The translations under genes and the position numbers were made by a program. From Actinomycetota bacterium (GTDB lineage Bacteria; Actinomycetota; UBA4738; HRBIN12): 47,275 nt of DNA. Shown here one piece after another: positions 1 to 46,989 of this stretch. Under the pieces are notes generated by a model. It ran no database searches. It had not been told where the DNA came from and saw nothing but the letters and a program-made list of their open reading frames with translations. Numbering within the stretch: position 1 is the stretch's first letter; the number at the start of each line of letters is the position of its first letter. The DNA lies in contig DATDJD010000375.1 of NCBI GenBank assembly GCA_036520695.1, positions 1-47,275 of the forward strand, in the 5' to 3' direction.

Positions 1-141
1 GACGCCAGGAACAAGGCGGAGGCCGCGCCCGAGAAGAAGGCCAAGAAGGCCAAGGACTGAGGTTGTGCTGACCGTCGCGGACTTCCGGCTATTCGCCTCG
101 ACCCCGATGGGGGACGCGGCTATCCAGAAGCTGCTCGACGA
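1..141. repeat. Terminal overlap, copy 1, identical to 47135-47275 (circular closure of the contig)
   Basis: Bases 1-141 (gacgccaggaacaagg...ctgctcgacga) recur exactly at 47135-47275. The repeat runs through the 3' end of one CDS and the 5' end of the next. Unique length is 47134 bp. Confidence 0.95.
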
Positions 142-607
142 CGCCTACACCTCGATCCTTGAGCGAGTCGGAAGGTTGGGCGTTGCGACGTCTTACCTGA
201 ACGGGGGAGGTGAGTTCCTCGTTCTCCCGACTCGTGCCGATCCTGATGAGGAGGTCGTCGTAACCGAGTGGTACGGTACGTCCTCACCGACGGATCTGGC
301 CGTAGACGACTACCAGCTGGGTGCCGATGGGGTCTCGCTGCGGCGGAAGAACGATGGCACCAACCCTGCTTACCTGTGGCCCGCGACTCTCAACCGGGTT
401 GTGTTCACGCGGCGCGACGATACCGCCAAGCGCGACATCGTTCAGCGCGACCTGGTCAAGCTGTCGTTGGATTACGAGCCGCTGATCTCCCAGGAGAGCA
501 TCGACGGCTACGCCTACAGCAAGGCCAGCAACTCGCTCCGATCCTACGAGGACGAATACGAGGCCATTCTGGCGCGGCTCGACCCGCCCGACGTGGGGTT
601 CCGATGA
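65..607 (+). CDS. head-tail connector/adaptor protein (gp6-like)
   Basis: GTG start; 180 aa. Lies just downstream of the capsid gene across the circular junction. The helical N-terminus (DAAIQKLLDDAYTSILERVG) resembles gp6-type adaptors. GC3 is high. Confidence 0.6.
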   Translation: MLTVADFRLFASTPMGDAAIQKLLDDAYTSILERVGRLGVATSYLNGGGEFLVLPTRADPDEEVVVTEWYGTSSPTDLAVDDYQLGADGVSLRRKNDGTNPAYLWPATLNRVVFTRRDDTAKRDIVQRDLVKLSLDYEPLISQESIDGYAYSKASNSLRSYEDEYEAILARLDPPDVGFR

Positions 608-1017
608 GCTTCGATGGCCTGATGATCCACCAGCTGGTGGCGGTCCGTCGGGTCACTTCTGACGACGAGGCGGATCTGGACGAGTCCGGTCACGAGACGG
701 TGATCGACGAGGTCACGACCGCGTTCTGGGGACGGGTGTATTCCAAGAACGCGCGGGAGATCGCACAGTCCACCCAAGATGGCGCGAGCATCAGTGACCA
801 CGTCATCCGCACCCGGAACCTGGACCTGTTGGGCATCGACTACATCACCTACGCCGACCCGGGCAATCCGTCCCAGGTGCACCCGACGGATCTGCGGCGC
901 TACGAAGTGCAGGCGGTACACATTCGCAACGACCGTCGCGGGCCGCACCACGCCAGCATCGAAGCGCAGCTCATCACGGCTTCGCCCGGGTCCATCCCGG
1001 TAGAGGCAGCCTCGTGA
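604..1017 (+). CDS. head closure / head-tail joining protein
   Basis: ATGA start/stop overlap with the upstream gene; 137 aa. Size and position match SPP1 gp16 / HK97 gp9-type head-closure proteins. Confidence 0.5.
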   Translation: MSFDGLMIHQLVAVRRVTSDDEADLDESGHETVIDEVTTAFWGRVYSKNAREIAQSTQDGASISDHVIRTRNLDLLGIDYITYADPGNPSQVHPTDLRRYEVQAVHIRNDRRGPHHASIEAQLITASPGSIPVEAAS

Positions 1018-1895
1018 TTGACGGCTACGCCTCGATGCCGCACTATGCCGACCACGTCAACACGGTCCTTGCCGCGCTGCCCGAGAACGTGCGCGGGCAG
1101 ATGGCGCTGAAGGGCGAAGGTCCGGTCCTGGTCGCCAGTTACCGTGACCACCGGGCCGTTCGCAGGGAAGGCCGCACCGCGATCGTCATGGAACACGGCG
1201 CAGGCCAGAGCTACTCGGACTCGCGGCCGGAGTACGCGGGTGGTCGGGATCGGGGCGACGCGGCGTTGTTCCTGGCACCCAACCATCACGCGGCTTCGCG
1301 GTGGAGTGAGGCGTACCCCGGTGTGCCGGTGGAGGTGGTCGGGAACCCTCGACTCGACCACCTCCCGGCCCGCGAGCCAGGCGAGGAGACGGTTGCGGTC
1401 ACGTTCCACTGGGACTGCCGCGCTGCGCCCGAAGCACGTAACGCCGAGCGGGTCTTCCGATCTGCGCTCCCGGCGCTGGCCAAGGAGTTCCGGCTGATCG
1501 GCCACGCGCACCCACGGGCCAACCTGGCTGGGTTGTTCAAGAGCCGCGGCATCGAGTGGGTGCCGGACTTCGCCGAGGTCTGTCGTCGGGCGGATCTTCT
1601 GGTGTTCGACAACACCTCGGTCGGGTTCGAGTTCGCCGCGACGGGTCGTCCGGTCGTGGTGCTGAACGCACCTTGGTACTCTCGCAACGCCAACCACGGG
1701 CTGCGCTTCTGGGACGCAGCCACCGTGGGGTTGCAGGTGGACGATCCGGCGCGCCTGGTCGAGATGGTGCGCGCGGCGTTGCGTGACACCCGCGAGATGC
1801 AGAGACGACGGGAGCAGGCGCTGGCGCTGGTCTATCCGGTTCGGTCGGGGGGTGCGCAGCTGGCCGCGGATGCGATCGTGCGGCACGTATGTTGA
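1014..1895 (+). CDS. glycosyltransferase-like protein (GT-B-like; TagF/glycerophosphotransferase-like C-terminal half)
   Basis: GTGA overlap start; 293 aa. The C-terminal half (LIGHAHPR...ADLLVFDNTSVGFEFAATGRPVVVLN) resembles nucleotide-sugar / CDP-glycerol transferase folds. First gene of a four-gene sugar-modification block. Confidence 0.45.
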   Translation: MIDGYASMPHYADHVNTVLAALPENVRGQMALKGEGPVLVASYRDHRAVRREGRTAIVMEHGAGQSYSDSRPEYAGGRDRGDAALFLAPNHHAASRWSEAYPGVPVEVVGNPRLDHLPAREPGEETVAVTFHWDCRAAPEARNAERVFRSALPALAKEFRLIGHAHPRANLAGLFKSRGIEWVPDFAEVCRRADLLVFDNTSVGFEFAATGRPVVVLNAPWYSRNANHGLRFWDAATVGLQVDDPARLVEMVRAALRDTREMQRRREQALALVYPVRSGGAQLAADAIVRHVC

Positions 1896-3193
1896 AGGAA
1901 GTCATCCTGGTCCCGCGTCGCGCCGACGATGGCCCGCGCGACGCGCTGTGGGAGTGGTGCCGCACCCAGAAGTGGGAACGCGAGCAGTCGCACATGCCGA
2001 TCTTCGAAGGGCATCACAACGACGGGCTGTTCAACCGATCCGCAGCGGTCAACAAGGCCGCGCGACTGGCAGGTGACTGGGACGTGGCGGTCATCATCGA
2101 CTCGGACGTGTTCATCGACCCGACGCGGCTGAAGGAAGCCGTCAAGCTGGCGCACAAGACCGGCAAGCTGGTCTATCCGCACGACGTCCGCAAGGATCTG
2201 ACCCGCCAGGGCAACCAGCGGATCATGGCTGGCTTCAACGGCAACTGGGAGCGGTTCGTCTACCGGCGCTACCCGGACATGGTCAGCTCGGTGGTTGTGG
2301 TGCCGCGGCGATTGTGGGATGAGATCGGCGGGTTCGACGAGTCCTTCCGCGGCTGGGGCTACGAGGACACCGCGTTCGCGGCAGCAGCAGCAACCTTCGG
2401 TGGCGACATTCGGATGCCTGGCGAGGTCTGGCACCTCTGGCACCCCACCGCCAAGGAAGGTCGCCCGGGGACCGAGACGCACATGCGCAACTCGGCCAAG
2501 GGTCAGCGTTACCGCGCCGCGATCGGCAACCGCGAAGCGATCCGCGCGCTCCAGTCCGAAGGCCGAGTCGAACGACCGGGCAGCGTTGGCATCCCGCGCA
2601 TCCTGCACCGAGTCGTGCCCGAGCAGCGCAACGTTCAGGCGGATAGCTGGTGGGCCGACTTCGAAGCGATGCACCCGGACTGGGATCTGATGACGCACCG
2701 CGACCCGCTGGACCCCGCTGAATGGCCTCTCACAGCCGCGCACTGGGACAAGGTAGCGAATGGTGCACAGTTCGCCGACCTCATCCGCCTGGAGGCGCTG
2801 CTGCGGTTCGGCGGAGTGTACGTGGATCAGGACGTGGAGCCGCTGCGACCGTTGGACCCGCTGCTGCCGCTGAGTGCATTCGCGGCCTGGGAAGATCCGC
2901 GCTCCGTTCCGAATGCGGTGATGGGCGCGACCCCAGATCATCCTGCGGTGTGGGCCTGCCTGGAGCTGATGATCGACCGGCTGCCAGGGGAGACGTGGAA
3001 GTCCGGACCCGGGGTGCTGACCGACGTGCTACCTGGCCGGAGTGACGTGCTGCTGCTGCCACCGGGATCGTTCTACCCGTACCACTACAAGGAGAAGGAG
3101 CGGGCGGGCGAGGACTTCCGGAAGAAGCAACCTTGGGCATTCGTTGCGCATCATTGGTGGGGCAGCTGGCTCGAGAAGGAGTCGGTCGCATGA
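1889..3193 (+). CDS. two-domain glycosyltransferase (N-terminal GT-A, beta4GalT/ppGalNAcT-like; C-terminal DXD sugar-binding, Och1/GT32-like)
   Basis: 434 aa. N-terminal domain has LFNRSAAVNKAA, IIDSDV (DxD) and GGFDESFRGWGYEDTAF. C-terminal domain has ADLIRLEALLRFGGVYVDQDVEP (DXD) and NAVMGATPDHP. Confidence 0.7.
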   Translation: MLKEVILVPRRADDGPRDALWEWCRTQKWEREQSHMPIFEGHHNDGLFNRSAAVNKAARLAGDWDVAVIIDSDVFIDPTRLKEAVKLAHKTGKLVYPHDVRKDLTRQGNQRIMAGFNGNWERFVYRRYPDMVSSVVVVPRRLWDEIGGFDESFRGWGYEDTAFAAAAATFGGDIRMPGEVWHLWHPTAKEGRPGTETHMRNSAKGQRYRAAIGNREAIRALQSEGRVERPGSVGIPRILHRVVPEQRNVQADSWWADFEAMHPDWDLMTHRDPLDPAEWPLTAAHWDKVANGAQFADLIRLEALLRFGGVYVDQDVEPLRPLDPLLPLSAFAAWEDPRSVPNAVMGATPDHPAVWACLELMIDRLPGETWKSGPGVLTDVLPGRSDVLLLPPGSFYPYHYKEKERAGEDFRKKQPWAFVAHHWWGSWLEKESVA

Positions 3194-3759
3194 TGGTGTT
3201 CGACCGGATCTACCGCACCAACGGGTGGAACGGCACCGAGTCGCGCTCCGGCCCGGGATCCGGCAGTGTCGCGACTCGGCACGTCGCTTCAGCGATCGCG
3301 GTGCTGGCTGAGGAGCTGAGGGTCGAGAGCGTCTTGGACCTCGGTTGCGGGGACGGCTATTGGATGCCGAAGCTCCCGGGGTACCTGGGGGTTGACGTCT
3401 CGGCCGAAGCGATCCGCCATGCCCGACGTAATCACCCGGACCGACGTTATCAGACGACGCCGCCGCTGGGGCATTTCGATCTGGTCATCAGCCGCGACGC
3501 GATGCAGCATCTGGCGCTCGTGGAGGCGGACCGGTTGCTGGACTTCGCGTTGACCGCGGGGGATTGGTTGCTGGCATCGACGTACATCAATGGCGCGAAC
3601 GTCGACATCGAGACCGGCCATTTCTACAGCCCGGACCTGACGGCTGCGCCGTTCAACCTGCCGCAGCCGAGCCAGCTGATCTTCGACGGCTACAGCTACC
3701 ACGACCCGGACCTCATTCGCGACCCGGGCAAGCACCTCGGACTGTGGGATCTGCGATGA
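3190..3759 (+). CDS. class I SAM-dependent methyltransferase
   Basis: ATGA overlap start; 189 aa. Motif I is VLDLGCGDGYW, followed by the acidic loop GVDVS and then DLVISRDAMQHL. Confidence 0.75.
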   Translation: MMVFDRIYRTNGWNGTESRSGPGSGSVATRHVASAIAVLAEELRVESVLDLGCGDGYWMPKLPGYLGVDVSAEAIRHARRNHPDRRYQTTPPLGHFDLVISRDAMQHLALVEADRLLDFALTAGDWLLASTYINGANVDIETGHFYSPDLTAAPFNLPQPSQLIFDGYSYHDPDLIRDPGKHLGLWDLR

Positions 3760-4343
3760 GGCCTCCGCAGTGCGCCGGGTTGGTGCAGAAGCCGGAAGGG
3801 TTGCGGCTGGCGCAGCTTGCCTCCGACGTGCCGCAGTACCAGGCCATCGTAGAGATCGGCACCCACACCGGGCTGTCGACGTGCTGGATGGCCGAGGGTT
3901 CGGAACGCGGGCGCGGCGCGCACATCACTGCGGTCGATCCTTGGGCACCTCCGCGTCCCGGTACGCAGGACGACCCGTTCGGGCTGGTCGATGGAGACGG
4001 GGTGTACCGGCAGTTCGCGAAGAACCTGGCCGACGAGCATCACTGGGGCACGGTCACTCCGCTGCGGGCGCGCTCTATCGAGGCGGCAGGGTTGTGGGTG
4101 CAGCCGGTGGGGCTGGTGTTCATCGACGCCATCCACGAGTACGACGCGGTCCGTCGGGACTACCTGGCCTGGGAGCCGCACGTTCCGGTCGGCGGGTGGA
4201 TCGCGTTCCACGATTACACCGAGGATCCGGCGCACGAGTACTACGGCGTCGCTGCGGCGGTCAACGGAGTCGTCGTTCCGTCCGGTAACTGGGGCACCCC
4301 GGAAGTGACGGAATACCTGTGGACGGCGAGGCGGGTGGCATGA
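3756..4343 (+). CDS. class I SAM-dependent (O-)methyltransferase-like protein
   Basis: ATGA overlap start; 195 aa. Has IVEIGTHTGLST (motif I-like), VTAVDPW and LVFIDAIHEYDAV, typical of Methyltransf_24/CmcI-like O-methyltransferases. Confidence 0.6.
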   Translation: MRPPQCAGLVQKPEGLRLAQLASDVPQYQAIVEIGTHTGLSTCWMAEGSERGRGAHITAVDPWAPPRPGTQDDPFGLVDGDGVYRQFAKNLADEHHWGTVTPLRARSIEAAGLWVQPVGLVFIDAIHEYDAVRRDYLAWEPHVPVGGWIAFHDYTEDPAHEYYGVAAAVNGVVVPSGNWGTPEVTEYLWTARRVA

Positions 4344-4543
4344 GGAAGCTGTGCCAGTGCGGCCACCCTGACGCTACTCACGTCGGGCCGGATGGGCCGT
4401 GCCGCATGAACAAGTGTCGCTGCGAGCTCTTCAACGAGGTCGGGGCCGCGGGCCGTCCGGAGCAGCCGTCGCGGATGGTGACGTTCGAGATCCCCGATGG
4501 CTACGTCCTCAACGTGCAGCTGGTGCCGGTCGATGGCTCGTAA
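4340..4543 (+). CDS. small Cys-rich protein (CxC...C...CxC)
   Basis: ATGA overlap start; 67 aa. Sequence MRKLCQCGHPDATHVGPDGPCRMNKCRCE suggests a zinc-binding knuckle. Last gene of the sugar-modification block. Confidence 0.5.
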   Translation: MRKLCQCGHPDATHVGPDGPCRMNKCRCELFNEVGAAGRPEQPSRMVTFEIPDGYVLNVQLVPVDGS

Positions 4544-4961
4544 GCGTTCCTCCCGAGTGGTCCTCAACCGGAGGAACATGCACGGCGTCGAGCTGGCGTT
4601 GGCGGACGGTGTCAACGCGGTCGCGCGGGCGATCGTCGAAGGGGCCGATCCGCCAGACGCAGCACCGTATGGCGTGGGCCTGGTCACCCGCGGCGGGTGG
4701 CTGACGTACATCGGTGACAAGAAGATCGACGGCGGTAGCACGTCGGGCAGGCAGCCGAAGAAGCCGCGATCGTTCCGAGTGAAGGGCACGGTCGGCATCG
4801 TGGCGATCGCTGGCTTCAGCTTCCCCGGGCGGTTCCAAGAGTTCGGCACCGTGCATCAGGCCGCGAAGCCGTTCCTGGCTCCGGCGCGGGATCGGGTGGT
4901 GCCGCATGTCGACTCGATCATGAAGCGCAACGCCTCGTACCGATTGGCGCGCATCCGATGA
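4533..4961 (+). CDS. HK97 gp10-like neck / tail-completion protein
   Basis: 142 aa. The C-terminal motif QEFGTVHQAAKPFLAPA is characteristic of the HK97 gp10 family. Start chosen at ATG 4533. Confidence 0.65.
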   Translation: MARKRSSRVVLNRRNMHGVELALADGVNAVARAIVEGADPPDAAPYGVGLVTRGGWLTYIGDKKIDGGSTSGRQPKKPRSFRVKGTVGIVAIAGFSFPGRFQEFGTVHQAAKPFLAPARDRVVPHVDSIMKRNASYRLARIR

Positions 4962-5401
4962 TGACCGAACCGCAGCTGCCGTTCTTGGGGCCGATCATCG
5001 TGGAGCTTCGGACCGACGTCGATCTGCGCGCGCTGGTCAGTACGCGAGTCCGTGGGTTCCGGCCGCAGGGCGGCGAGAATGGGGACGTCCAGCCCGCGGG
5101 CCACTACAAGCGGTTCGTGGTTCTCAGCATCCTCTCTGCGCCTGTAGAACCGTCCCTGCCGATCACCTTTGCCGAAGTGGCAGCCAGGTGCTACGGGACT
5201 GACGACACGGACGCCTGGACCGTTTGGGCGGCGCTGGTGAAGGCCATCCACGCGGTCGGGCCGCGGGTGAAGGACTCGGGCCTCGGGATCTACCGAACGG
5301 CCGTACTCACCGGAGGCGTACAAGACAGCGATCCTGACACGGACCAGCCGATGGTCACGGGATCATTCCAAGTCATCGCGACTACTCAGGTGGTCGTGTA
5401 A
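4958..5401 (+). CDS. tail terminator-like protein
   Basis: ATGA overlap start; 147 aa. Lies between the gp10-like gene and the major tail gene. Confidence 0.5.
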   Translation: MMTEPQLPFLGPIIVELRTDVDLRALVSTRVRGFRPQGGENGDVQPAGHYKRFVVLSILSAPVEPSLPITFAEVAARCYGTDDTDAWTVWAALVKAIHAVGPRVKDSGLGIYRTAVLTGGVQDSDPDTDQPMVTGSFQVIATTQVVV

Positions 5402-5444
5402 GTAGTACGGCCCTGGCACTGCCAGAGTCAAACGAAAGGACGAG

Positions 5445-5774
5445 ATGGAAGGCAACCTGCCGGGGATCGGCTTCCTGCCTCCGCGACTGGACGCATTGCT
5501 GAACGCACTGCGCTCGGTTACGGTGCGCCAGGTGCTGATCCGTGGTTGGGGATCTCCGTGCGCCGCGGACGAACATTCGATGGTGGATTGGATCACCGGG
5601 ATGTACCGAGCGCGCTATATCGTCATCCGGGTCTGTGAGTTGTGCGAGGCCGCGGAGATCCGCGACCGGACCACGGCGATCATCCCGGTGGTTGGAGGCC
5701 GGATGCAGTCGGCCCCAGACATCTTGTTGGGCTGGTACAGCGGCGCTCGCCGATCCCAGCGCGTGTATTCGTAG
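5445..5774 (+). CDS. hypothetical protein
   Basis: RBS gaaaggacgag lies before the ATG. About 80% GC3 by manual count; 109 aa. Confidence 0.5.
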   Translation: MEGNLPGIGFLPPRLDALLNALRSVTVRQVLIRGWGSPCAADEHSMVDWITGMYRARYIVIRVCELCEAAEIRDRTTAIIPVVGGRMQSAPDILLGWYSGARRSQRVYS

Positions 5775-5790
5775 ATAGGGAGAACCGGTC

Positions 5791-6303
5791 ATGCCAGTCA
5801 CCGCAGCCACCCCTGCCAACCTGTTGGTCGGCGCTGGGGACGTTTACGTCGATGGGGCCGTCCTCGGCGCGTCCATCGACGACAATGCCTTCCGCATCGA
5901 GCGGGACTACTTCACGCCAGAGCTGAACGGTGTGAAGGGGATGCTTCGCGGCACCACCTACATCGACCGATCCGAGGCGGTGCTGGAGTGCTCCATCCCG
6001 GAGATCAGCGCCACGATCATGGAGAGCCTGTGGCCGGGATCCGAAGAGGCGGGCGGGACCATCACCGAGGACGGCACCCGTCGGCTTCCTTCGACCGCGT
6101 ACCACGATTGGGCGCTCCAGGCCGAGGGCATCGACGGCAAGTGGTTCACTTTCGAAGCGGACGGCGGGCTCAACCTCGCCAACCTGGAGATGACCCTTGG
6201 CGACTCGTCGGTCGCCGCGCCGAGGGCGGAGGTCCATTCCACCTGGGATGCGGCTGACACCGACGCGGCACCGCACCGCATCATCGTCGCGGACGCTTCG
6301 TAA
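5791..6303 (+). CDS. major tail (tube) protein
   Basis: 170 aa, immediately upstream of the chaperone pair and tape measure. RBS is gatagggagaaccggtc. Confidence 0.6.
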   Translation: MPVTAATPANLLVGAGDVYVDGAVLGASIDDNAFRIERDYFTPELNGVKGMLRGTTYIDRSEAVLECSIPEISATIMESLWPGSEEAGGTITEDGTRRLPSTAYHDWALQAEGIDGKWFTFEADGGLNLANLEMTLGDSSVAAPRAEVHSTWDAADTDAAPHRIIVADAS

Positions 6304-6306
6304 GAG

Positions 6307-6978
6307 GTGTTCGAGGCGCTGATCCCGAAGCGCACCCCGGAGGACTTCGCCTCCGGGGTGATCCGGGTGCGGCTTGGCAGGCGCGATCTGGCGCTGGAAG
6401 AGCTGCCGATGGAGGCTATGGACGCCTGGTCTGCCAAGGTAGATCGGGAACTGGCCGTGCTGTTGGGGCGGTTGGACCGAGGCGACGACACCAACGCGGT
6501 CATGATGGCGCTGACGATGGCCAAGGATGACATCGTGAAGGTGCTGGTGCTGTACCCTGGCGTCCCGGACGAGGAGTATCTCCGGAAGAACGCCACCAAC
6601 TCTCAAGTCCTCCGAGCGTTGATGGGGGTGTGGTCCGCCGCGAACCCTTTAGTCGCCGCGCTCGTGGAAGCCGTGATGGTGTTGAGTCAGTCGACCGAGA
6701 CTGGCAACGCATCCGAGCTTATGGGCACGTTGCACAGGATCTCGGGTGGACGTTCCGCCAAGTTCGACAACAGCTCACCTACTCGGAGTTCGTCGCCAGG
6801 CTTGACATCGCGCAAGAACGGCTCGACGAGCATCTCGAAGCCGCGGTCGAGGCCACCCGTCTCGGGACGGGGTTCGCCCGCGACCGGAAGGCTTACGCCA
6901 AGTGGCGCAGGCGCGCCGACAAGCGAATGGGCATCGGACGTGGTCTCACGGGCGCGGCGCTCGAAAGGGCGGTCATGA
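6307..6978 (+). CDS. tail assembly chaperone, upstream (zero) frame
   Basis: GTG start. The first ~115-135 aa look protein-like. After that the frame continues with no stop to 6978 as an S/R/P/G-rich sequence. Confidence 0.5.
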   Translation: MFEALIPKRTPEDFASGVIRVRLGRRDLALEELPMEAMDAWSAKVDRELAVLLGRLDRGDDTNAVMMALTMAKDDIVKVLVLYPGVPDEEYLRKNATNSQVLRALMGVWSAANPLVAALVEAVMVLSQSTETGNASELMGTLHRISGGRSAKFDNSSPTRSSSPGLTSRKNGSTSISKPRSRPPVSGRGSPATGRLTPSGAGAPTSEWASDVVSRARRSKGRS

Positions 6979-7064
6979 GCATCGCCATGGTCGACCAGAA
7001 CATTCCGTTCCGGCACAGCCCGTCCGTAAAGGGCGGGATCGTCCAGTTCCGGAGGGCTGTCTAG
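6307..7064 (+). CDS. tail assembly chaperone, putative -1 frameshift fusion product (6307..6651 joined to 6651..7064)
   Basis: The -1 frame from about 6700 to 7064 has a normal composition (GHVAQDLGWTFRQVRQQLTYSEFVARLDIAQERLDEHLEAAVE...) but no convincing start of its own. It ends 2 nt before the tape measure start. A canonical heptamer lies at 6645-6651. Confidence 0.45.
6645..6651 (+). promoter_or_regulatory. candidate -1 slippery heptamer C_CCT_TTA
   Basis: Has the X_XXY_YYZ pattern in the zero frame (AAC CCT TTA). By established knowledge, TTA is a rare codon in high-GC Actinobacteria. It is the only canonical heptamer I found in the overlap zone. Confidence 0.4.
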
Positions 7065-7065
7065 C

Positions 7066-9216
7066 ATGGCCGGAGCCAACATCGGGGATCTGCTGATGCG
7101 AGTGGTGGCGGACCTGAAGGGGTTCTCCACCAGCATCGAGGTAGCTGGTGCCAAGGCCGGAGACAAGGCCGGAGCAGCGACTGGCAAGAGCTTCGGCTCG
7201 AAGTTCACTAAGACCCTGAAGGGCGGCTTGAAGGGCGGGATCCTTCAAGGCCTCGGCTTGGGGGTCGGGATCGGTGCGGTCGGTGCGGCGACGGCTGCCA
7301 TCGGGGCCATCGGTAGTGCGTTGAAGGGTGCGATCGACGATGCCATCGCGTTCGAGCGGGCCATGGCCAACGTCAACTCCATCGCCAAGTTCACCGATCA
7401 GGAGCTGGCCGAGGCTTCCGCGGCGGTCATCGAGTTGTCGAAGGAGTTCGGGCAGTCGGCCCTGACGATGGCGGAGGGGTTGTACGACATCACCTCGTCC
7501 GGGTTCGAAGGAGCCGAGGCGCTGCAAGTCCTGGAAGCTGCCAGCTTGGCGGCGACGGCAGGCCTGTCCGACACCGCGACGGCTTCGAGCGGGATCGCGG
7601 CGGTCCTGAATGCCTACGGCCTGAGCGCCGAGGAGGCCACGCGGGTCTCGGACATCATGTTCCAGACGGTCAATCGGGGCGTCATCACCTTCCCGGAACT
7701 GGCCGACCAGATCGGCAAGACCACCGCGCTGTCCGCACCGTTGGGCGTCTCGTTGGAGGAGGTCGCTGCGGCGGTGTCCCTGATGACCCGCAACGGCGTC
7801 GGGGCAGAGGAGACGTTCACCCAGATCAACGCGGTCATGAACTCGATGCTGAAGCCGTCGCAGGAGGCGGCAGAACTGGCGGCGGATCTTGGACTGGAAT
7901 GGGACGCTACCGCGCTGCGCACCAATGGGCTGGTCGGTCAGGTGCAGAAGCTCATCGTCGCCACGGGCGGTTCGCACGAGAAGATGGCGACACTGCTGGG
8001 TGACAGCCGCGCGATCCGGGGCGCGTTCGTCTTGGCCAAGGATGCTGGCGAGGAGTTCAGCACCGAGTTGGGCATCATGGAAGAGTCCGCGGGTGCGGCG
8101 GGTGCCGCGTTCGCTGTTCAGGCTGACACGGTCGACTTCAAGGTGAAGCAGACGGAGGCCGCGATCGGGGCATTCTCGACGCAGATGGGTACCCAGTTCA
8201 TCCTCGGCTTGGGCGCGTTCCTGGAGTTCTTGGACGAGGCCGCGACAGGTATCTCCGATTTCTTGGACTTCGTCACTCCCTGGGACGAGTACATGACGGT
8301 GGCCGAGGAGAAGGCCAAGGCCATGGCTCACACCGTCTCCGAGGAGGTCCGGCACAACCTGAAGGGGCCGGTCACGACGGCTCTGGAGGATACCGGCGCA
8401 GCCGCGGGCAACATGGCGCAGGAGTTCGACGATGCCGCGACTGACACCGTCGAGTCCTTCCAGCAGATGGTCGATCGGTTGACGCAGGAGGCCGACCGGC
8501 TGATCGACGACGTGCACGACCCGGCCATCCAAGCAGCCGAGCTGGTTGCCAAGGAGGAGGAACTGGCGGCGCTCGAGCGGATCGCCACCGCGGAGGGTGT
8601 GTCGGAGGCGTTCAAGGAACAGGCGCTGGCGGATGCGGATACGGACAAGGAACGCAAGGCCGCGCGCAAGCTGGTGACGGACGAGGAGATCGCGGACGCC
8701 GAGCGCCGGAAGCTGGAGGTCGCCAAGCAGTACGACGAGCTGCGCCTGGAGATGTTGACGTCGGGCAACCTGACGGCTAAGGATACGGACAAGTGGCTCG
8801 GTCAGTTGGAAGAGGACTACCGCACCGCTACCGGCAAGGCCAAGAAGAAGATCGGCGAGCTGATCGCGAAGATCAAAGAGCTGCGGGGCCAAGCTGCCAA
8901 GGGCATCACGGTCCGGATCACCTTTGGGAAGTATGAAGGCAAGTCGCTCGGTGAGGAACGAAGAGCCTCGGGTGGACCGATGAAGGAGGGTAAGCCGTAC
9001 CTCGTCGGCGAGGAAGGTCCGGAGCTGATGTTCCCGGACACCTCCGGGTTCCTGGCCAATGCGTCGCAGACCGCGGCCATGATGGACGGATCCTCGGGTG
9101 GTTCTGCGGGTGGTAACACCTACCAGGTAGCGCTGCCGGAGACGGTCAGCTACGAGAGTCCGCGCGATGTCATCGACGCGATGAAGATGCTGGGTGAGCG
9201 GGGGTATATGGGCTGA
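7066..9216 (+). CDS. tape measure protein
   Basis: 716 aa, the longest gene. It has a Gly/Ala-rich hydrophobic stretch (GLGLGVGIGAVGAATAAIGAIG) and a long Ala/Glu-rich helical body, and follows the chaperone pair. Confidence 0.9.
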   Translation: MAGANIGDLLMRVVADLKGFSTSIEVAGAKAGDKAGAATGKSFGSKFTKTLKGGLKGGILQGLGLGVGIGAVGAATAAIGAIGSALKGAIDDAIAFERAMANVNSIAKFTDQELAEASAAVIELSKEFGQSALTMAEGLYDITSSGFEGAEALQVLEAASLAATAGLSDTATASSGIAAVLNAYGLSAEEATRVSDIMFQTVNRGVITFPELADQIGKTTALSAPLGVSLEEVAAAVSLMTRNGVGAEETFTQINAVMNSMLKPSQEAAELAADLGLEWDATALRTNGLVGQVQKLIVATGGSHEKMATLLGDSRAIRGAFVLAKDAGEEFSTELGIMEESAGAAGAAFAVQADTVDFKVKQTEAAIGAFSTQMGTQFILGLGAFLEFLDEAATGISDFLDFVTPWDEYMTVAEEKAKAMAHTVSEEVRHNLKGPVTTALEDTGAAAGNMAQEFDDAATDTVESFQQMVDRLTQEADRLIDDVHDPAIQAAELVAKEEELAALERIATAEGVSEAFKEQALADADTDKERKAARKLVTDEEIADAERRKLEVAKQYDELRLEMLTSGNLTAKDTDKWLGQLEEDYRTATGKAKKKIGELIAKIKELRGQAAKGITVRITFGKYEGKSLGEERRASGGPMKEGKPYLVGEEGPELMFPDTSGFLANASQTAAMMDGSSGGSAGGNTYQVALPETVSYESPRDVIDAMKMLGERGYMG

Positions 9217-9689
9217 TGCCATCCACCATCGCGCTCATCACCGGGTTGGTCTACGGCGGAGTGGACCTGCAAGACCTGAGCGCGGGCCATCTGCGGATCT
9301 TCTTCGAGATCCGGGCAGGGCGTCCGTTCGACACCCCCGAGGTGCGCGGCGACGACCGAACGGTGCCCTATCGCGAAGGGCAATACTACGGGCCGAAGCG
9401 GTTCGACCGGCTGCCGATCCTGCTGGTGGGGTTCGTTGCTGGGGAAGGGTCGGATGAGGCGAGCCAGCGTTCGGACACTGCGGCGGCGCGGTGGGAGATG
9501 CGCACGTTGTTCGACCCGACTGCTGGTGAGCAGGTGATGACGTGCACCACCGAGGACGGTACGGACTGGACCATCAACCCTTACCCGGAGGCGCTCATCT
9601 GGGATGAGGTGCCACCGGCCACGACGCATTGGGGCGCGAGCGTGCGGTTGATGGCAATCGACCCGCCCTACTGGACGGCAGGCTCATGA
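9216..9689 (+). CDS. minor tail protein (distal tail protein position)
   Basis: Its ATG shares 1 nt with the tape measure stop; 157 aa. First gene after the tape measure. Confidence 0.5.
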   Translation: MPSTIALITGLVYGGVDLQDLSAGHLRIFFEIRAGRPFDTPEVRGDDRTVPYREGQYYGPKRFDRLPILLVGFVAGEGSDEASQRSDTAAARWEMRTLFDPTAGEQVMTCTTEDGTDWTINPYPEALIWDEVPPATTHWGASVRLMAIDPPYWTAGS

Positions 9690-14058: not shown

Positions 14059-15600
14059 GTGAGCCTGCTCCTCCTCTTCCAAGGCGGCGTCGAGTCGTGC
14101 GACGAGGGGTTTCAAGGGGATGCGTTCCAAGACGACGCGTTCCAGATGTGCGTCGAGGCGGATCGCTCTGCCTCGGGATCGGCCACCGGCTCCGGCGACA
14201 CAACCGGTGCGAAGCAAGCCAGCGGATCCGCCTCCGGTTCGGCGTCTGTCTCTGGTGATACAGCGGGCCAGAAGCTCGCTGCCGGGACCGCGTCCGGCAC
14301 GGGCGGATCGTCGGGCCAGGCGACCGGTTCCAAGCAAGCTGCGTCGGTCGCGGACGGCTCCGGCTCCGGTTCGGGTTCCGGCTCCGGGACTGGAGGCCAC
14401 GCTGGCGCGGTAGCAGGCTCCGCTACGGCCTCCGGCGATACGAGCGGGGCCAAGGCCGCGAGTGGAACGGCCAGCGGCTCAGCGACCGTTTCAGGGGCGG
14501 TCACGGGCGAGAAGAATGCGGCCTCGGCTGTCTCCGGCTCCGGCTCCGGCTCCGGCTCGGCCAGCGGCGAGGAGGGCCACCCGGCGATCGTCGAAGGTTC
14601 CGCATCCGCGAGTGGCGCGGTCACCGGTGACAAGGCAGCCTCGTCGGCAGTCTCGGGCTCCGGCTCCGGGTCGGGCGAGGTCAACGGCCAGGAGGGTGCG
14701 TCGAACGTCATCGACGGGTCGGCTTCCGCCAGCGGCTCGGCAGTGGGCGAGAAGAACGCCTCAGGATCAGCCACAGGCTCCGCAACTACCAGCGGCGAGG
14801 TAGTTGGCGCCAAGCAGGCTAACGGAGCTGTAGCGGGCTCTGGAGCGGGCTCAGGGGAGTCCACTGGGAATGCCTTGCAACTGGCCGACGGGCAAGCCAT
14901 CGGCTCGGCGACGGCTTCCGGGTCTGTCGTCGGGGCCAAGTCGGCCAGCGGGGTCGCGGATGGTAGCTCCGGGACGTCGGGCGCGGTCGTCGGGGAGAAG
15001 GCGGCATCCGGCTCCGGGTCTGGTTCTGGCTCTGGTTCCGGCGAGGTCATCGGGGATGGTGCTCAAGCCGGGATCGCGGAGGGGACTGCCTACGCCAACG
15101 GTGAGGTGGTCGGGTCCAAGCAGGCGTCGTCGTCCGTCTCGGGTTCCGCGACCGGATCGGGTGAGACCGAGACCGAGTCACCCAGCGCAGCAGTCGAAGG
15201 CTCGGCGGGTGCGTCGGGAACGGTCGCCGGGTTCTCTGCACGCGCGTCGATCTCAGACGGCTCCGCGGCATCTGGCGGGACGACGGGCGGCGAGCATCTG
15301 GCGTTCGCCTCCATCGCGGGGCTTGTGGCTGCCACCGGGTTGGTCGCCGGATCGAAGCAGGCCAACGGATCCGCGTCAGGCTCGGCTACGGCAACAGGCT
15401 CGCTTTCCAACATCCCACCGTTCATCTTCCCGCGCGGGATCCGCGGTTCCACCACTGCTCCAGGGCTGGACGGATCGACCCGCGTTCCGGTGCTGGTTGG
15501 AGGCACCATTGCTCCATCCGGCCCGACCGGCTCTACCGAGACTCGTGAGCTGGTCGGTACTACCAGCGGCAACCACCCCACCGGCAACACGGAGGTCTGA
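14059..15600 (+). CDS. Gly/Ser/Ala/Thr-rich decapeptide-repeat fibre protein
   Basis: GTG start; 513 aa. The N-terminus (MSLLLLFQGG) resembles actinophage minor tail proteins. Residues ~37-450 are almost entirely G/S/A/T with a strict 10-residue periodicity. Confidence 0.6.
   Translation: MSLLLLFQGGVESCDEGFQGDAFQDDAFQMCVEADRSASGSATGSGDTTGAKQASGSASGSASVSGDTAGQKLAAGTASGTGGSSGQATGSKQAASVADGSGSGSGSGSGTGGHAGAVAGSATASGDTSGAKAASGTASGSATVSGAVTGEKNAASAVSGSGSGSGSASGEEGHPAIVEGSASASGAVTGDKAASSAVSGSGSGSGEVNGQEGASNVIDGSASASGSAVGEKNASGSATGSATTSGEVVGAKQANGAVAGSGAGSGESTGNALQLADGQAIGSATASGSVVGAKSASGVADGSSGTSGAVVGEKAASGSGSGSGSGSGEVIGDGAQAGIAEGTAYANGEVVGSKQASSSVSGSATGSGETETESPSAAVEGSAGASGTVAGFSARASISDGSAASGGTTGGEHLAFASIAGLVAATGLVAGSKQANGSASGSATATGSLSNIPPFIFPRGIRGSTTAPGLDGSTRVPVLVGGTIAPSGPTGSTETRELVGTTSGNHPTGNTEV
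14167..15408 (+). repeat. about 40 tandem degenerate 30-bp (decapeptide) units, with a 60-bp super-repeat
   Basis: Gly falls at every 10th residue from aa 10 to 270, and the pattern resumes after a 2-residue phase shift. Lys recurs at aa 52, 72, 92, 132, 152, 192, 232, 252, 294, 314 and 354, mostly 20 or 40 aa apart. Confidence 0.8.
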
Positions 15601-25813: not shown

Positions 25814-26008
25814 TCGTGGTCGGACGGTGCGACGTGGTCACGGATGTCAAGGTCGGGACTAACAGACACCGGCACTACTTGGGAGAAGTTCGCCGCCTAA
25901 CGGCTGTGCGCTCCATTTCCTTCGGCCACTAGCGTGGTCGTCCCCTGGGTGCTCCGGCCACTCCCGGCCACCGTCCAACAATCGGATCTGACAGGAAAGG
26001 ATCAAGCA

Positions 26009-27109
26009 GTGACTGACTCCATCGCCGCATTCGAAGCGCGGATCGTCCCCGAACTGGCGCAGTTCGTCCGTCCCATCGGGGACGCCACGAGGCACCCGGA
26101 CAACATCCGCAAGCATCGCATCGACAAGATCGCGCAGAGCCTCCGGGCCCACGGCCAGCGCGCCGCCATCGTGGTCCAGAAGTCCACCGGCCTGATCGTG
26201 AAGGGCAACGGCACCCATGAAGCCGCGGAGCTTCTGGGGTGGACCGACATCGCGCAGATCTGGCAGGAGATGACCGACGAGGAAGCGTTGGCGTTCCTGT
26301 TCGCTGACAACAAGGCCAGCGACTTCAGCAGCTACGACCGGGACAAGACCGTGGCCGGGTTGAAGAAGCTCGCCGCTGGCCCGGGCCTGTTCGACTCCCT
26401 GTGGGAGATCGAGGAACTGGAGGATCTGGTCGAGCAAGCCGATGGCATGGCCGTTCTGGAAGCGCAGGGCACCACCGCAAGCCTGGCCACGGCAACCGCT
26501 GGCGGCACGCCGATCACCGAGGCTGCCAAGGCACCCCCGGAGCGGATGAAGGAGATCCCGCTGGTCATGACCCTGGCGGACCACTCGAAGTTCGTCGAGT
26601 CCCTGAAGGTGTTGGCCAAGCTGTTCAAGACCAACGGCACCATCGCCACCATCGTGGAAGCCGTGCGTCGCCAGGCTGCGGCCGAAGCGGGCGCACCGAT
26701 CGTCGGTTCGGCCGATCAGGATGCCGTGGTGTACGGAGCGCAGCGGGCGCTGGTCAAGGAACTGCGCGACTACATCGCCACCCAAGGCATCGAACGATCC
26801 TACTCCGGTACCTGGCTGATGGCGCAGCTGGAGTCGATGGTCCCGTACCGCGCGCAGCCAACGGCTGAGCCGGTGGTCGTTGGGCAAGTGGAAGCCTTCC
26901 CGGAGGGTGCAGAGGAGGCACCCGCAGTCAGCCCGCTACGGTCGCCGGATCCCCTCCCGGTGGCCGTAGCAGAGGCTGATACCGAGGACGACGTCGAGGC
27001 GCTCGAGATGCTGGCCCGGATCCGCAAAGGTGACGCCATGCCGCTGGTCCAAGCGCAGGCCGCAGCCGTCCTCGCCGCAGAGGCAGCCGATCCGAGCGCT
27101 GAACTGTGA
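26009..27109 (+). CDS. ParB-like nuclease domain protein
   Basis: GTG start after ggaaaggatcaagca; 366 aa. The N-terminus (HPDNIRKHRIDKIAQSLRAHGQRAAIVV...IVKGNGTHEAAELLGW) is ParB/Srx-like. Confidence 0.7.
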   Translation: MTDSIAAFEARIVPELAQFVRPIGDATRHPDNIRKHRIDKIAQSLRAHGQRAAIVVQKSTGLIVKGNGTHEAAELLGWTDIAQIWQEMTDEEALAFLFADNKASDFSSYDRDKTVAGLKKLAAGPGLFDSLWEIEELEDLVEQADGMAVLEAQGTTASLATATAGGTPITEAAKAPPERMKEIPLVMTLADHSKFVESLKVLAKLFKTNGTIATIVEAVRRQAAAEAGAPIVGSADQDAVVYGAQRALVKELRDYIATQGIERSYSGTWLMAQLESMVPYRAQPTAEPVVVGQVEAFPEGAEEAPAVSPLRSPDPLPVAVAEADTEDDVEALEMLARIRKGDAMPLVQAQAAAVLAAEAADPSAEL

Positions 27110-27501
27110 CCTTCGCACAGTGCACCGACTGCCCTGGGACAGTGATCGTCGGGCGGTACTCCACCATCACCGTCCCCCGGGTGGATGAGGAAGGCTTCCC
27201 CCAGCTGGGATCCGATGGGACGTTGCGCTACATCACGTTGCGGCTGCCCAATCACCGGGCCAGGTTCGTGTCCAGTAGCGGGCCGGACGTTCCGCACAGC
27301 ACCTTCGATCCGACCGGCCTTGCTCCGGCCGAATGCCAGCACGGGATCCCCGAGCATCCCGACGGAGTGCGACTGCGGTACGGTGGTCAGAGTTGGATCC
27401 GGTCGAAGTACCTCGATGTGGGTCGGGGGATCGGGGTGACCTGCCCTGTCTGCCGTGGCGAGGAAGCTCCCGAGGATCTGACCACTCCGAGAGTGGCGTG
27501 A
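27106..27501 (+). CDS. hypothetical zinc-ribbon protein (CTDC...CPVC)
   Basis: GTGA overlap start; 131 aa. Confidence 0.55.
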   Translation: MTFAQCTDCPGTVIVGRYSTITVPRVDEEGFPQLGSDGTLRYITLRLPNHRARFVSSSGPDVPHSTFDPTGLAPAECQHGIPEHPDGVRLRYGGQSWIRSKYLDVGRGIGVTCPVCRGEEAPEDLTTPRVA

Positions 27502-28496
27502 CCACCTATCGGCCCGTTCTCTCTGAGCATTCGGGCGACTGGCACGTCGAGAAGTTCGCGGAGTTCGATCGCCTGAAGGCACAGCTTGGCGAGCCGACCC
27601 CGCACATGAACATCGTCCGCTGGATGTCATCCGATGCAGATGATAGCGAACGACTGTGGCGGGCTGGAGCCTATGCCGCGGGCTACTCCGTCCTGACCGC
27701 AGAGGCGATCTGGCGGGAGTGGCCGGTGGAACGGGCAACGTCGGACCTGGCCGGACTGGAGGACTGGATCTTCGACAACTGGCAGGGCATCCACACCCGT
27801 ACCCCACGGCGGGCAGTTCGGACCCCGGATAAGTTCTTCCGCTGCCTGGCCAGCTACATCGACTGGATGCAGGCCGAACCGTTGCTGCACGATCGCTACG
27901 GCTACGACGCACCGTACGACGAGTGGTGGGCGTCGGCCAACAAGATCGACTTCATGGGCCGCTACATCGTCATCCGGCTGCTCGAGCTGCTGCGCCGCTG
28001 GGACTTCATGTCGGCGGAGCTGTATGACATCCGAGCGATGGAGGCCGAGTCCCCGATCCGGTGCCTGACGCTGCTGGTGCCCGAACGGGCCGGACCGCTG
28101 CTGGCGGGCGATACCAAGGTAGCGGACGAGATGGCCGACCTCATCTTGCGGGTGGCGTCGTCGGACCGGTCGTACTTCCGGTTCGCCGCGCTGCTCTGCG
28201 AGTACCGTAAGTCCTACGAGAACCAGGGCGACTACCCGGGCAACCAGACCGATGAGGAGTTGGGGTACACCTTCTCGAGGTACGCCACCTGGTGGTCTGA
28301 GCGAGGCCACGAGACGCAGCTGTTCGCGGCTCGCCGAGCGCTGGTGCCGGAGCAGGCGCGCGGCGAGAACCACGGCTGGGTTGGCCAACGGAAGCTGGCC
28401 GGATCCGCACTCCGCGAACACGGCGTCAATTGGACAGATATGCGTTACGATTGGGCTGCCTCGGAAGCAGCAGGAAGGCCGAAGGAATGGACGTAA
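27498..28496 (+). CDS. all-alpha protein of unrecognised family (candidate base-modifying transferase / aGPT-Pplase-like, by context only)
   Basis: GTGA overlap start; 332 aa. Trp/Arg-rich and helical (WRAGAYAAGYSVLTAEAIWREW, FMGRYIVIRLLELLRRW). Lies immediately upstream of the phosphatase, kinase and dioxygenase genes. Confidence 0.3.
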   Translation: MTTYRPVLSEHSGDWHVEKFAEFDRLKAQLGEPTPHMNIVRWMSSDADDSERLWRAGAYAAGYSVLTAEAIWREWPVERATSDLAGLEDWIFDNWQGIHTRTPRRAVRTPDKFFRCLASYIDWMQAEPLLHDRYGYDAPYDEWWASANKIDFMGRYIVIRLLELLRRWDFMSAELYDIRAMEAESPIRCLTLLVPERAGPLLAGDTKVADEMADLILRVASSDRSYFRFAALLCEYRKSYENQGDYPGNQTDEELGYTFSRYATWWSERGHETQLFAARRALVPEQARGENHGWVGQRKLAGSALREHGVNWTDMRYDWAASEAAGRPKEWT

Positions 28497-28939
28497 CCAA
28501 CCGCAAACGGCAAGGGGTGAACGCCATCATCCCGGGGCTGCTCTACCAGCGAGGTCACTTCCTGACCTGGCCGCACGAGCGCAAGATGACCATGCTGGAG
28601 GAACTCGGGATCTCCGTCGTCATCAACCTGTGGCACCGGGTGGACTCCGATCTGAGTCAGGACATCCCCGGGACGTTCTACATCAACGCACCGATGTCCC
28701 CGAGCGCCATGCCGCGGGACGCACGATCGCTGCTCGACTTCGCGGGCAAGCTGCTGGCAGCAGGGCATGTGACCCTCGTCCACTGCGAGGCAGGTAAGGG
28801 TCGTTCGGCGTGGTTTGCGACGCGCCTGATGGCGGAACGGTTGGGGATCTCGAAGGCGGAAGCCTGGCAGATCGTGCAACAGGCAGTGCCAGGCAACAGC
28901 GTGCACGGGCCGCTGCTGCGCGATCTGACGGAGGAGTAA
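28487..28939 (+). CDS. Cys-based (dual-specificity/PTP-fold) phosphatase
   Basis: 150 aa. The P-loop VHCEAGKGRS fits HCx5R(S/T). RBS is gaagga. Confidence 0.75.
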   Translation: MDVTNRKRQGVNAIIPGLLYQRGHFLTWPHERKMTMLEELGISVVINLWHRVDSDLSQDIPGTFYINAPMSPSAMPRDARSLLDFAGKLLAAGHVTLVHCEAGKGRSAWFATRLMAERLGISKAEAWQIVQQAVPGNSVHGPLLRDLTEE

Positions 28940-28942
28940 GGA

Positions 28943-29488
28943 ATGGACGCACTCTACGTAATCGGAGAACCAGGGGTGGGCAAGTCAACGTTCGTGAAAC
29001 GGCTGACCGACGGCCTACCGCACGAGGACGGCACCAGCCCGTTCGCCTTCCGGGCCTACGACTGCGGAGTCTACGAGTTGGGCGCGCGTCGCCCGGACTA
29101 CCCTGGCACGGATGCACTAGGTATGTCGGTTCAGCCGATCGTCGAGCAGTTCCTGGAGGGAATGAAGCCGCTGTATCTGCTGGCTGAGGGGGACCGGTTG
29201 GCGAATGCCAAGTTCTTTGACTTCCTCATCAGGATCGGGTACAATCTGCACGTGGTCATCTTGCGCGGACCGGAGGTCGCAGCGGTGCAGCGGAAGCTGC
29301 GCGGCTCGAACCAGGACCCGACGTGGCTGAAGGGGCGGCAGACCAAGGTGGCACGACTGGCCGAGCGGTTCGGTGGGGACGTGGTCGCGGCGGGCCGTCC
29401 CCTGGCGCAGATGGTCGAGGACGTGAACAATCCCGTGACGGAGCGGCTCGCCGAGGCGCGAGTCCTGGAGGCACTCGATGCAGTTTAG
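28943..29488 (+). CDS. P-loop kinase/NTPase (candidate 5-hydroxymethylpyrimidine DNA kinase)
   Basis: 181 aa. Walker A is GEPGVGKST at residues 8-16. LYLLAEGD is Walker B-like. Confidence 0.6.
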   Translation: MDALYVIGEPGVGKSTFVKRLTDGLPHEDGTSPFAFRAYDCGVYELGARRPDYPGTDALGMSVQPIVEQFLEGMKPLYLLAEGDRLANAKFFDFLIRIGYNLHVVILRGPEVAAVQRKLRGSNQDPTWLKGRQTKVARLAERFGGDVVAAGRPLAQMVEDVNNPVTERLAEARVLEALDAV

Positions 29489-46940: not shown

Positions 46941-46955
46941 GACCCCCAGTGAGTT

Positions 46956-46989
46956 CCGCCCGCTGTCCCGTTTGCGGGGTGGCGGGCGG
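46956..46989 (+). terminator. GC-rich stem-loop downstream of the capsid gene (possible attenuator/terminator)
   Basis: CCGCCCGC (46956-63) pairs with GCGGGCGG (46982-89). An inner CCCG/CGGG stem lies around a tttg loop. The hairpin is followed by tgctt, a weak U tract. Confidence 0.35.

Follow-up and report, generated by a model that had tools for sequence, protein, structure and literature searches.

To our knowledge, the glycosylation of phage virions has been demonstrated only in a few mycobacteriophages. The stretch of DNA considered here, a contig of 47,275 nucleotides from an uncultured actinobacterial source (DATDJD010000375.1, assembly GCA_036520695.1; hereafter the window), carries between the genes of a head-closure protein and an HK97 gp10-like neck protein a cassette of five overlapping plus-strand genes (1014-4543). 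These encode a TagF-like transferase of GT-B fold, a glycosyltransferase (GT) in which two GT-A domains are fused, two S-adenosylmethionine (SAM)-dependent methyltransferases (MT1 and MT2) and a small Cys-rich protein. Judged from homology and position, the cassette is probably a late module for the O-glycosylation of virion proteins with a methylated glycan, as in phages Che8 and Corndog, and in phages that carry it the proteins of capsid and tail tube nearly always end in serine, in the window preceded by alanine or glycine ([AG]S).

Organization of the genome and the cassette

An exact repeat of 141 bp opens and closes the window (1-141 and 47135-47275), which points to a circular assembly and thus to a phage genome that is complete at ~47,134 bp. 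Terminase, portal, protease and capsid are encoded at 40.6-46.9 kb, and the capsid gene at the window's end runs on into the connector genes at the beginning. The same genome was also recovered as a Logan contig. A near-identity DNA search with positions 1-6500 gave zero matches among 50,697 phage records, that is, no sequenced close isolate relative. G+C content is ~65% genome-wide, and the composition of the cassette is unremarkable.

Each gene of the cassette overlaps the one before it, with GTGA at 1014, 7 nt at 1889-1895 and ATGA at 3190, 3756 and 4340; the last three positions are likely the true starts of MT1, MT2 and the gene of the Cys-rich protein, rather than the starts of the longest open reading frames (ORFs). 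No promoter- or terminator-like site was found within 1-7000. An initial annotation, made from the sequence by itself, had described five coupled genes between the head-closure and gp10-like genes, which the overlaps, the common strand and the matches of the flanking genes bear out, and the motifs that it had listed (FNR, DSD, GWGYED, YVDQDVE, LDLGCGDG, VEIGTHTG and FIDAIHEYD) are all present in the translations. For the neck gene, the start called in a relative (L171; L numbers are our labels for the loci compared) corresponds to 4533 (Table 1).

Table 1. Genes and domains of the window discussed in the text, in order of position
Feature	Position	Strand	Evidence or remark
Adaptor	65-607		
Head-closure protein, 137 aa, end ...VEAAS	604-1017	+	Position; homologues beside Phage_HCP-type genes
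TagF/TarL-like transferase of GT-B fold, 293 aa	1014-1895	+	PF04464; fold
Fused glycosyltransferase, two GT-A domains	1889-3193	+	
Fused GT, N-terminal GT-A domain, aa 1-226, GT2/GT7/GT27-like	1889-2566	+	DSD and GWGYED
Fused GT, C-terminal GT-A domain, aa 232-434, GT32/toxin-like	2582-3193	+	DXD motif YVDQDVE
MT1, class I SAM methyltransferase, 189 aa	3190-3759	+	LDLGCGDG
MT2, Methyltransf_24 SAM methyltransferase, 195 aa	3756-4343	+	PF13578
Small Cys-rich orphan protein, 67 aa, end ...PVDGS	4340-4543	+	
HK97 gp10-like neck gene, bounding the cassette downstream	4533 or 4578 to 4961	+	TIGR01725 (2.2e-5), phrog_5
Tail terminator	4958-5401		phrog_123
Major tail (tube) protein, 170 aa, end ...VADAS	5791-6303	+	phrog_885
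Distal-tail-like (Dit-like) protein, 157 aa, end ...WTAGS	9216-9689	+	
Dam-like MethyltransfD12 gene	~24.4-25.2 kb		Upstream of the hypermodification block
ParB_N-like protein	25934-27109		Hypermodification block
131-aa ORF			Hypermodification block, listed between the ParB_N-like and amino acid:DNA transferase genes
Amino acid:DNA transferase (AADT)	27498-28496		PF18724 (6e-7)
DSPc phosphatase			Hypermodification block, listed between AADT and kinase
P-loop kinase	28943-29488		PF18751 (2e-22)
Tet_JBP dioxygenase gene	29478-30479		
HNH gene	30479-30928		
Major capsid protein, 440 aa, end ...FTDGS	45618-46940	+	PF05065

The enzymes of the cassette

The product of the first gene matches the Pfam family PF04464 (Glyphos_transf; 1.4e-7, 31.2 bits against a gathering cutoff of 22.1), with an alignment restricted to profile positions 259-357 of 367. 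Its AlphaFold (AF2) model is a GT-B fold (pLDDT 94) with the best Foldseek TM-scores (0.60-0.66) to TagF, TarL and UDP-GlcNAc 2-epimerase, and lower ones to SdgB, PimA and BshA. The match above threshold and the fold together make it a TagF-like protein, which may transfer a polyol-phosphate instead of a sugar. It has more than 1450 homologues, in which H14, H61, H132 and H166 are invariant, and its NCBI name is CDP-glycerol glycerophosphotransferase family protein. Sequence searches of the PDB returned noise only (HIV gp41, E ~0.2), a profile search of PDB sequences returned nothing, and by hhalign the family is unrelated to Corndog gp36. With the CDP-polyol phosphotransferases TagF and TarL it has in common the Pfam match above the gathering score, the GT-B fold and several conserved histidines, but it is only 293 aa long, lacks a membrane-association region, is encoded in a phage structural operon and matches just the C-terminal third of the profile. 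The initial annotation had called it a GT-B-like transferase and had counted three GT catalytic domains in the cassette; the fold stands, whereas its identity as a glycosyltransferase is not assured given the likeness to TagF and TarL, and the count is overstated, one of the three domains possibly being a polyol-phosphate transferase. As a separate observation, 8 of the 38 unique TagF-like proteins in cassette loci L011-L089 themselves end in [AG]S (21% versus a background of ~3%; for example ...WLSAS in L020), which could reflect self-modification or chance.

The fused GT is modelled as two GT-A folds (pLDDT 91) joined by a linker that is disordered at aa 227-231 (pLDDT <50). Its N-terminal domain matches PF02709 (7.5e-8), PF00535 and PF10111 in Pfam and, in PHROG, phrog_1721 ('galactosyl transferase', 1.4e-29), the family that Che8 gp109 matches at 8.9e-114; by BLASTP it aligns at 29% to Che8 gp109 (1.9e-12) and at 26% to Corndog gp37 (4.8e-12), its identity to gp144 and gp143 of phage Phrappuccino is 38% and 35%, and Foldseek returns B4GalT1/7, ppGalNAc-T2 and K4CP. 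The C-terminal domain matches the DXD domain PF04488 (7.3e-9), is 52% identical to Phrappuccino gp142 and 44% identical to prophiGD91-2 gp73, both of them stand-alone genes, and resembles in Foldseek the protein-glycosylating toxins YeGT, PaToxG and SetA as well as the GT32 enzyme Och1. In 37 homologues there is no variation at D71/D73 and D313/D315 of the DXD motifs or at E159/D160, and both domains combine a GT-A fold with a conserved DXD motif, as expected of GT-A enzymes of the DXD type. Over its full length the model is matched best in Foldseek by the bifunctional chondroitin polymerase of E. coli K4 (K4CP), which likewise has two GT-A domains per chain with one DXD motif each; however, sequence identity to it is 12-13%, the overall TM-score is low (0.32), and relatives of the fused GT also have their domains separate or in reverse order. 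The domain calls of the initial annotation, including the two-domain fusion, are supported by the Pfam, PHROG and NCBIfam matches and by the AlphaFold models.

MT1 matches Methyltransf_23 (1.3e-9) and also Methyltransf_25/11/12 in Pfam, and phrog_3382 (8.4e-16) in PHROG. MT2 matches PF13578 (Methyltransf_24; 2.6e-24), a family to which Corndog gp35 (a TylF/Methyltransf_24 enzyme) and, in Che8 gp108 (a GT2-Methyltransf_24/TylF fusion), the methyltransferase domain also belong; MT2 itself is without a TylF match, and its PHROG differs from those of the Che8 and Corndog methyltransferases. From its family, MT2 is probably a sugar O-methyltransferase. It is also optional and dispensable: in L171 (Logan SRR26541668 contig), the nearest relative, where the fused GT is 90% identical, MT2 is cut to a 61-aa remnant (L171:4837-5022), an in-frame fusion of the N- and C-terminal ends from which the catalytic core is gone. 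Among the 21 loci with a full-length fused GT and full flanks, an MT2-like gene is present in 2, an MT1 homologue in 10, mostly adjoining the fused GT, and a TagF-like gene at <=6 kb from the fused GT in 13. The remnant and these counts indicate that the fused GT makes up the conserved core, to which the TagF-like gene and MT1 may or may not be joined.

The 67-aa protein had zero matches in Pfam, PHROG and NCBIfam, and a search of 5.8 billion proteins returned only itself; a copy in L171 is 87% identical and ends ...PIDGS. The initial annotation had included this gene in the cassette. It is present there, but it is a lineage-specific orphan of the window phage and L171, two close relatives, and not a conserved member of the cassette; the protein is possibly a tagged virion protein.

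The family of the first enzyme and the closest solved relative of MT2 lend themselves to a different reading, in which the enzymes would alter a polymer of the host envelope (teichoic-acid-like, arabinogalactan-type or a glycolipid) to block superinfection or the re-adsorption of progeny, with virion proteins not being the target. Phage enzymes that modify host surface glycans are well known, members of the TagF/TarL family build wall teichoic acid, and the NCBI name of the first enzyme agrees with that family. The best PDB sequence match of MT2 is 6g7d (3.9e-7), which we take to be MeT1, the mycobacterial methylmannose-polysaccharide 1-O-methyltransferase. The biology of MeT1 is treated in PMC9883506. 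In the five cassette genes, however, Pfam, PHROG and NCBIfam reveal no membrane-spanning, flippase or lipid-carrier component; the genes are coupled inside the head-tail operon, unlike a moron, which would have a promoter and terminator to itself; and an integrase was not found among the ORFs tested. The scans likewise gave none of the marks of a lysogenic-conversion module for surface glycans (gtr-like or TarP-like), namely signals of its own, membrane families or an integrase. Envelope modification would, moreover, leave unexplained the serine ends of capsid and tube proteins in cassette phages, and we regard it as distinctly unlikely.

C-terminal serine on virion proteins

In the window, the capsid, tail tube, head-closure, Dit-like and 67-aa proteins end in [AG]S, an end found on 0 of the ~45 remaining gene calls. 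All five genes lie within the structural gene block, and four of them encode virion proteins. For a wider survey of this tag, longest-ORF gene calls on the plus strand of 80 cassette loci were clustered and unique sequences counted; gene calling based on G+C at third codon positions (GC3) was dropped, as it picked antisense ORFs, the antisense frame having equally high GC3. A terminal serine is found on 36/37 unique capsid sequences, which belong to four unrelated families (the PF05065 type of the window, phrog_10, phrog_2263 and phrog_283), and on 19/20 unique tail tube sequences, again from four families (phrog_885, 158, 117 and 792). It is found elsewhere in these loci on 1/32 large terminase subunit (TerL), 0/18 portal and 1/7 protease sequences, and two tail-terminator families are also often tagged. 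The penultimate residue of the tagged capsid and tube proteins is mainly G, A or S. Taken over all unique proteins of cassette loci, the share with an [AG]S end is 10.2%; the controls give 3.0% for loci of the same capsid family that lack a cassette and 3.2% for six-frame ORFs.

The tag also comes and goes with the cassette within single families. All nine unique homologues (9/9) of the window-type capsid in cassette loci end in [AG]S, and the ends in this family read ...DLTAGS, ...DLAAGS or ...DWGS with a cassette and ...DLTA, ...DVAA or ...ITLP without one nearby. L094, L100 and L101, which have capsids 47-59% identical and no cassette, show zero [AG]S ends, and L092 and L097, which have the cassette, carry them on capsid, head closure and tube. 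The window-type tail tube ends in AS in 5/5 unique homologues from cassette loci, the head-closure homologues of L017, L085, L088 and L092 likewise end in [AG]S, and so do 3/6 unique homologues of the Dit-like protein. L171 retains all of its C-terminal Ser tags despite changed neighbouring residues: its head-closure protein has a diverged C-terminal region and still ends ...EEAS, and its Dit-like protein ends ...WTAGGS, with an insertion that preserves the GS end. Among isolates, the same kind of end occurs on proteins found by experiment to be glycosylated, namely the capsid proteins Che8 gp6 (...KTGS) and Corndog gp41 (...LVGS) and the tail tube protein Che8 gp11 (...SDGS), and also on the prophiGD91-2 capsid (...SSGS); L5, Bxb1 and TM4 are without them. 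An origin of the tag as a by-product of start/stop overlaps was considered and rejected: although the head-closure and Dit-like genes end in an overlap with a GTGA/ATGA start, those of the capsid, tube and 67-aa proteins do not, and the serine codons vary (TCG, TCA, AGC).

L042-L045 and L048 contain a fused GT and have no TagF-like or MT1 gene within 10 kb; their tail-tube and neighbouring proteins are nonetheless Ser-tagged, which suggests that the fused enzyme holds the tag-recognising activity. On the strength of the C-terminal sequences, the acceptors are likely the terminal serines of the capsid (Ser440) and the tail tube (Ser170), and the head-closure and Dit-like proteins are possible further acceptors.

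Glycosylation of the virion might instead fall mainly on a Ser/Gly-rich fibre (14059-15600) or on internal Ser/Thr residues, the [AG]S ends then being an unrelated feature of the lineage. The fibre, which the initial annotation had taken for the obvious substrate, is a 513-aa protein with a Cys/Asp-rich start and ~20 repeats of SGSASGS/GxxGxK type, and ends ...GNTEV. Such repeats are suggestive, the model of the first enzyme has some resemblance to SdgB, which glycosylates Ser-Asp repeat proteins, and mycobacteriophages of cluster N have the C-terminal ends without any detectable glycosyltransferase (see below). However, the fibre has no family match and no homologue in any of 79 cassette loci, the flanks of which seldom extend that far. 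The tag, for its part, goes together with the cassette in eight capsid and tube families that are unrelated to one another, and also when close relatives are compared, and it agrees with how the Che8 and Corndog substrates end. A fibre-directed or internal modification with coincidental C-terminal serines is, in our judgement, unlikely.

Distribution of the module

By tblastn, the fused enzyme matched 210 phage records, 205 of them mycobacteriophages. A word-indexed search returned more than 690 matches with the fused architecture at 55-90% identity, an exhaustive search (E <= 1e-30) 246 clusters at 50% identity in which the domains are fused, swapped or alone, and IMG/VR 206 relatives. The position of the module within the structural operon varies among 79 IMG/VR loci: it lies 3' of the head-closure gene, as in the window, in L017, L020-22, L031-32, L085 and L088, immediately 3' of the capsid gene in L025, L037, L052, L077, L081, L084 and L086, between protease and capsid in L028 and between portal and protease in L058, and in other relatives 3' of the lysis genes. 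In L007 (a contig of GCA_034680565.1), which has an unrelated, SPP1-type portal, the cassette is also present right after Phage_HCP. These matches suggest that a related, differently composed set of enzymes is common in uncultured actinobacterial phages. L007 also encodes, after Phage_HCP and with the cassette next, another repeat-rich virion protein, of 459 aa with Collagen and Gp10_C matches (L007:4728-6107).

Comparison with known glycosylation systems

The abstract of a 2023 study by Freeman et al. reportedly places the glycans at the C terminus of capsid and tail-tube subunits, and is said to describe virion glycosylation as rare outside phages of Mycobacterium, Gordonia and Streptomyces. 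A literature search for the exact glycosylation site found no paper describing it. The genes for virion glycosylation in mycobacteriophages are given as Che8 gp108-110 and Corndog gp35-38 in PMC11256854, PMC11600133 and PMC12363180, and Che8 gp110 and Corndog gp38 are described as the essential glycosyltransferases in PMC12363180. Both match PF01755 (GT25).

The window resembles these systems in having a phage-encoded cluster of several GTs with an O-methyltransferase, a GT-A domain of the same phrog_1721 family as Che8 gp109 and Corndog gp37, a methyltransferase of Methyltransf_24 type and capsid and tube proteins with the same serine end. The Corndog cluster lies, moreover, inside the structural operon, between portal-region genes and the capsid gene, and this is a precedent for the position of the window's cassette. 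It differs in that GT25 is replaced by a DXD domain of GT32/toxin type, joined in one chain to the GT-A domain, together with the TagF-like enzyme, in the addition of a second, unrelated methyltransferase (MT1) and in its site between the head-closure and gp10-like genes; the phage itself is uncultured and comes from a metagenome bin labelled Actinomycetota. The parallel with Che8 and Corndog drawn by the initial annotation therefore holds for one GT family (phrog_1721) and one methyltransferase family (PF13578), which are the part already known, and fails for the GT25 enzyme; new here are the replacement of the latter and the placement among connector genes.

The closest homologues from isolates are encoded by Phrappuccino gp142-145 and prophiGD91-2 gp73-80, where class I methyltransferases also adjoin. 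There, unlike in the window, each domain has a gene of its own, next to that of the other, the cluster is not among the head-tail genes, and a TagF-like gene is lacking. In Phrappuccino (L172, NC_054727; 36656-38227), the 178-aa gp54 (phrog_2783), encoded directly upstream of the capsid gene gp55, ends ...ALAGGS and may be a tagged surface protein.

A separate DNA-modification block

The genome also encodes a Tet_JBP dioxygenase, and the initial annotation had offered hydroxymethylated DNA as an alternative target of the cassette. The gene belongs to a DNA hypermodification block at 25934-30928, separate from the cassette (Table 1). ParB-dependent T-dioxygenases of phages are consistently linked to P-loop kinases and AADTs, and glycosyltransferases go with the ParB-independent dioxygenase clade (PMC13229309); the neighbourhood in the window matches the description given there of the ParB-dependent enzymes. 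With its ParB_N-like, AADT and kinase neighbours, the Tet_JBP gene thus appears to form part of a self-contained DNA pathway of non-glycosyl type, and the block is predicted from its gene content to make an amino-acid-type hypermodification of thymidine.

This bears on the proposal that phage DNA is what the cassette modifies: the TET/JBP enzyme would make 5-hydroxymethyl-pyrimidines, and the cassette would glycosylate and methylate the DNA at these bases, in the manner of base J or the glucosylation of T-even DNA. Besides the presence of the Tet_JBP protein, the proposal can draw on the association of some phage 5mYOX enzymes with glycosyltransferases (PMC13229309; bioRxiv 10.1101/2023.12.21.572611) and on the PHROG label of the MT2 family, 'DNA methyltransferase'. 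The TET gene is, however, 24 kb away from the cassette, in the early/replication region and with ParB_N-like, AADT, DSPc and kinase neighbours of its own, and the ParB-associated subclass pairs with kinases and AADTs rather than glycosyltransferases (PMC13229309). In none of 79 related loci is there a TET homologue at 10 kb or less from the fused GT; Che8, Corndog and Phrappuccino have GT homologues, and TET/JBP is unannotated in the retrieved regions of those genomes. The cassette, by contrast, has its place among virion genes, and its presence goes with C-terminal tags on proteins. DNA is a highly improbable target.

Proposed pathway and its weighing

That a methylated glycan is built on virion proteins, as the initial annotation had suggested, is the reading best supported by the homology of the enzymes and their position in a late structural operon. 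From the observed gene content, homology, operon position and co-variation of tag and cassette, together with the GT-B and GT-A folds of the models, we infer how the glycan might be formed, on which residue, by which enzyme first and with what identity. The cassette enzymes would be translated along with the head and tail proteins, and one GT domain would place a sugar on proteins with the end small residue-Ser-COOH, at the hydroxyl group of that last serine; our guess for this initiating step is the toxin/GT32-like C-terminal domain of the fused enzyme. Its tagged substrates would be the major capsid (...TDGS) and tail tube (...ADAS) proteins, and possibly the head-closure, Dit-like and 67-aa proteins. 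Chain extension would then fall to the B4GalT/GT2-like N-terminal domain and the TagF-like GT-B enzyme, the latter possibly adding a polyol-phosphate or sugar-phosphate, and MT1 and MT2 would O-methylate the sugars. The product would be a capsid and tail surface with several hundred copies of a short methylated glycan that masks the protein.

Several points weigh against this reading. No protein of the window matches PF01755 or aligns to Che8 gp110 or Corndog gp38, so a GT25 homologue is missing; the first enzyme belongs to a TagF-like family that makes teichoic-acid-type polymers; and the PHROG label of MT2 refers to DNA. The closest homologues of the fused GT among isolates are those of Phrappuccino, yet its capsid gp55 ends ...RKAA, without the serine tag. 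Conversely, the cluster N phage Charlie (L170, NC_023729; 4372-5664, 7877-8935), the capsid of which is 37% identical to that of the window, has the ends ...TSGS on its capsid and ...QPAS on its tube without an annotated or Pfam-detectable glycosyltransferase, and a search for a hidden one in Charlie gp62-64 gave zero Pfam or BLAST matches; the capsid of Redi-type cluster N phages (L110) ends ...SSGS. The tag can therefore occur without a phage cassette, and in cluster N it is possible that a host enzyme uses it, that it is a relic or that it has another role. Finally, the Fisher P of 0.005 for the tag statistics and the binomial values are indicative only, since the sequences are related and the gene calls simple.

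A bolder and, on balance, rather unlikely extension of the preferred reading is a widespread, mobile tag-and-coat system in environmental actinobacterial phages, of which the cassette would be one version. In such a system small residue-Ser-COOH would suffice to mark any virion protein for O-glycosylation by the fused enzyme, the tag would have been gained separately by eight or more unrelated capsid and tube families, each time on arrival of the cassette, and polyol-phosphate transfer by the TagF-like enzyme would yield a methylated teichoic-acid-like coat. We know of no such coat described for any virus. The main interest lies in the C-terminal Ser rule and in the breadth of the module in environmental phages: the rule would offer a simple sequence predictor of glycosylated proteins and, if true, could serve to give therapeutic phages a glycan shield or to take it away.

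Further observations

Directly 3' of the capsid gene, 46949-47194 encodes a lysine-rich protein of 81 aa that has a CPVCG...C motif in its N-terminal part and may be a decoration protein or a DNA-associated head protein. It is kept in L016, L025 and L037 (37-55% identity), where the cassette comes next. At 32852-33993, three consecutive and partly overlapping ORFs have near-identical ends (...REEADDGR, ...REEADDGR and ...AREEADDV), which suggests tandem paralogues or a repeated DNA segment.

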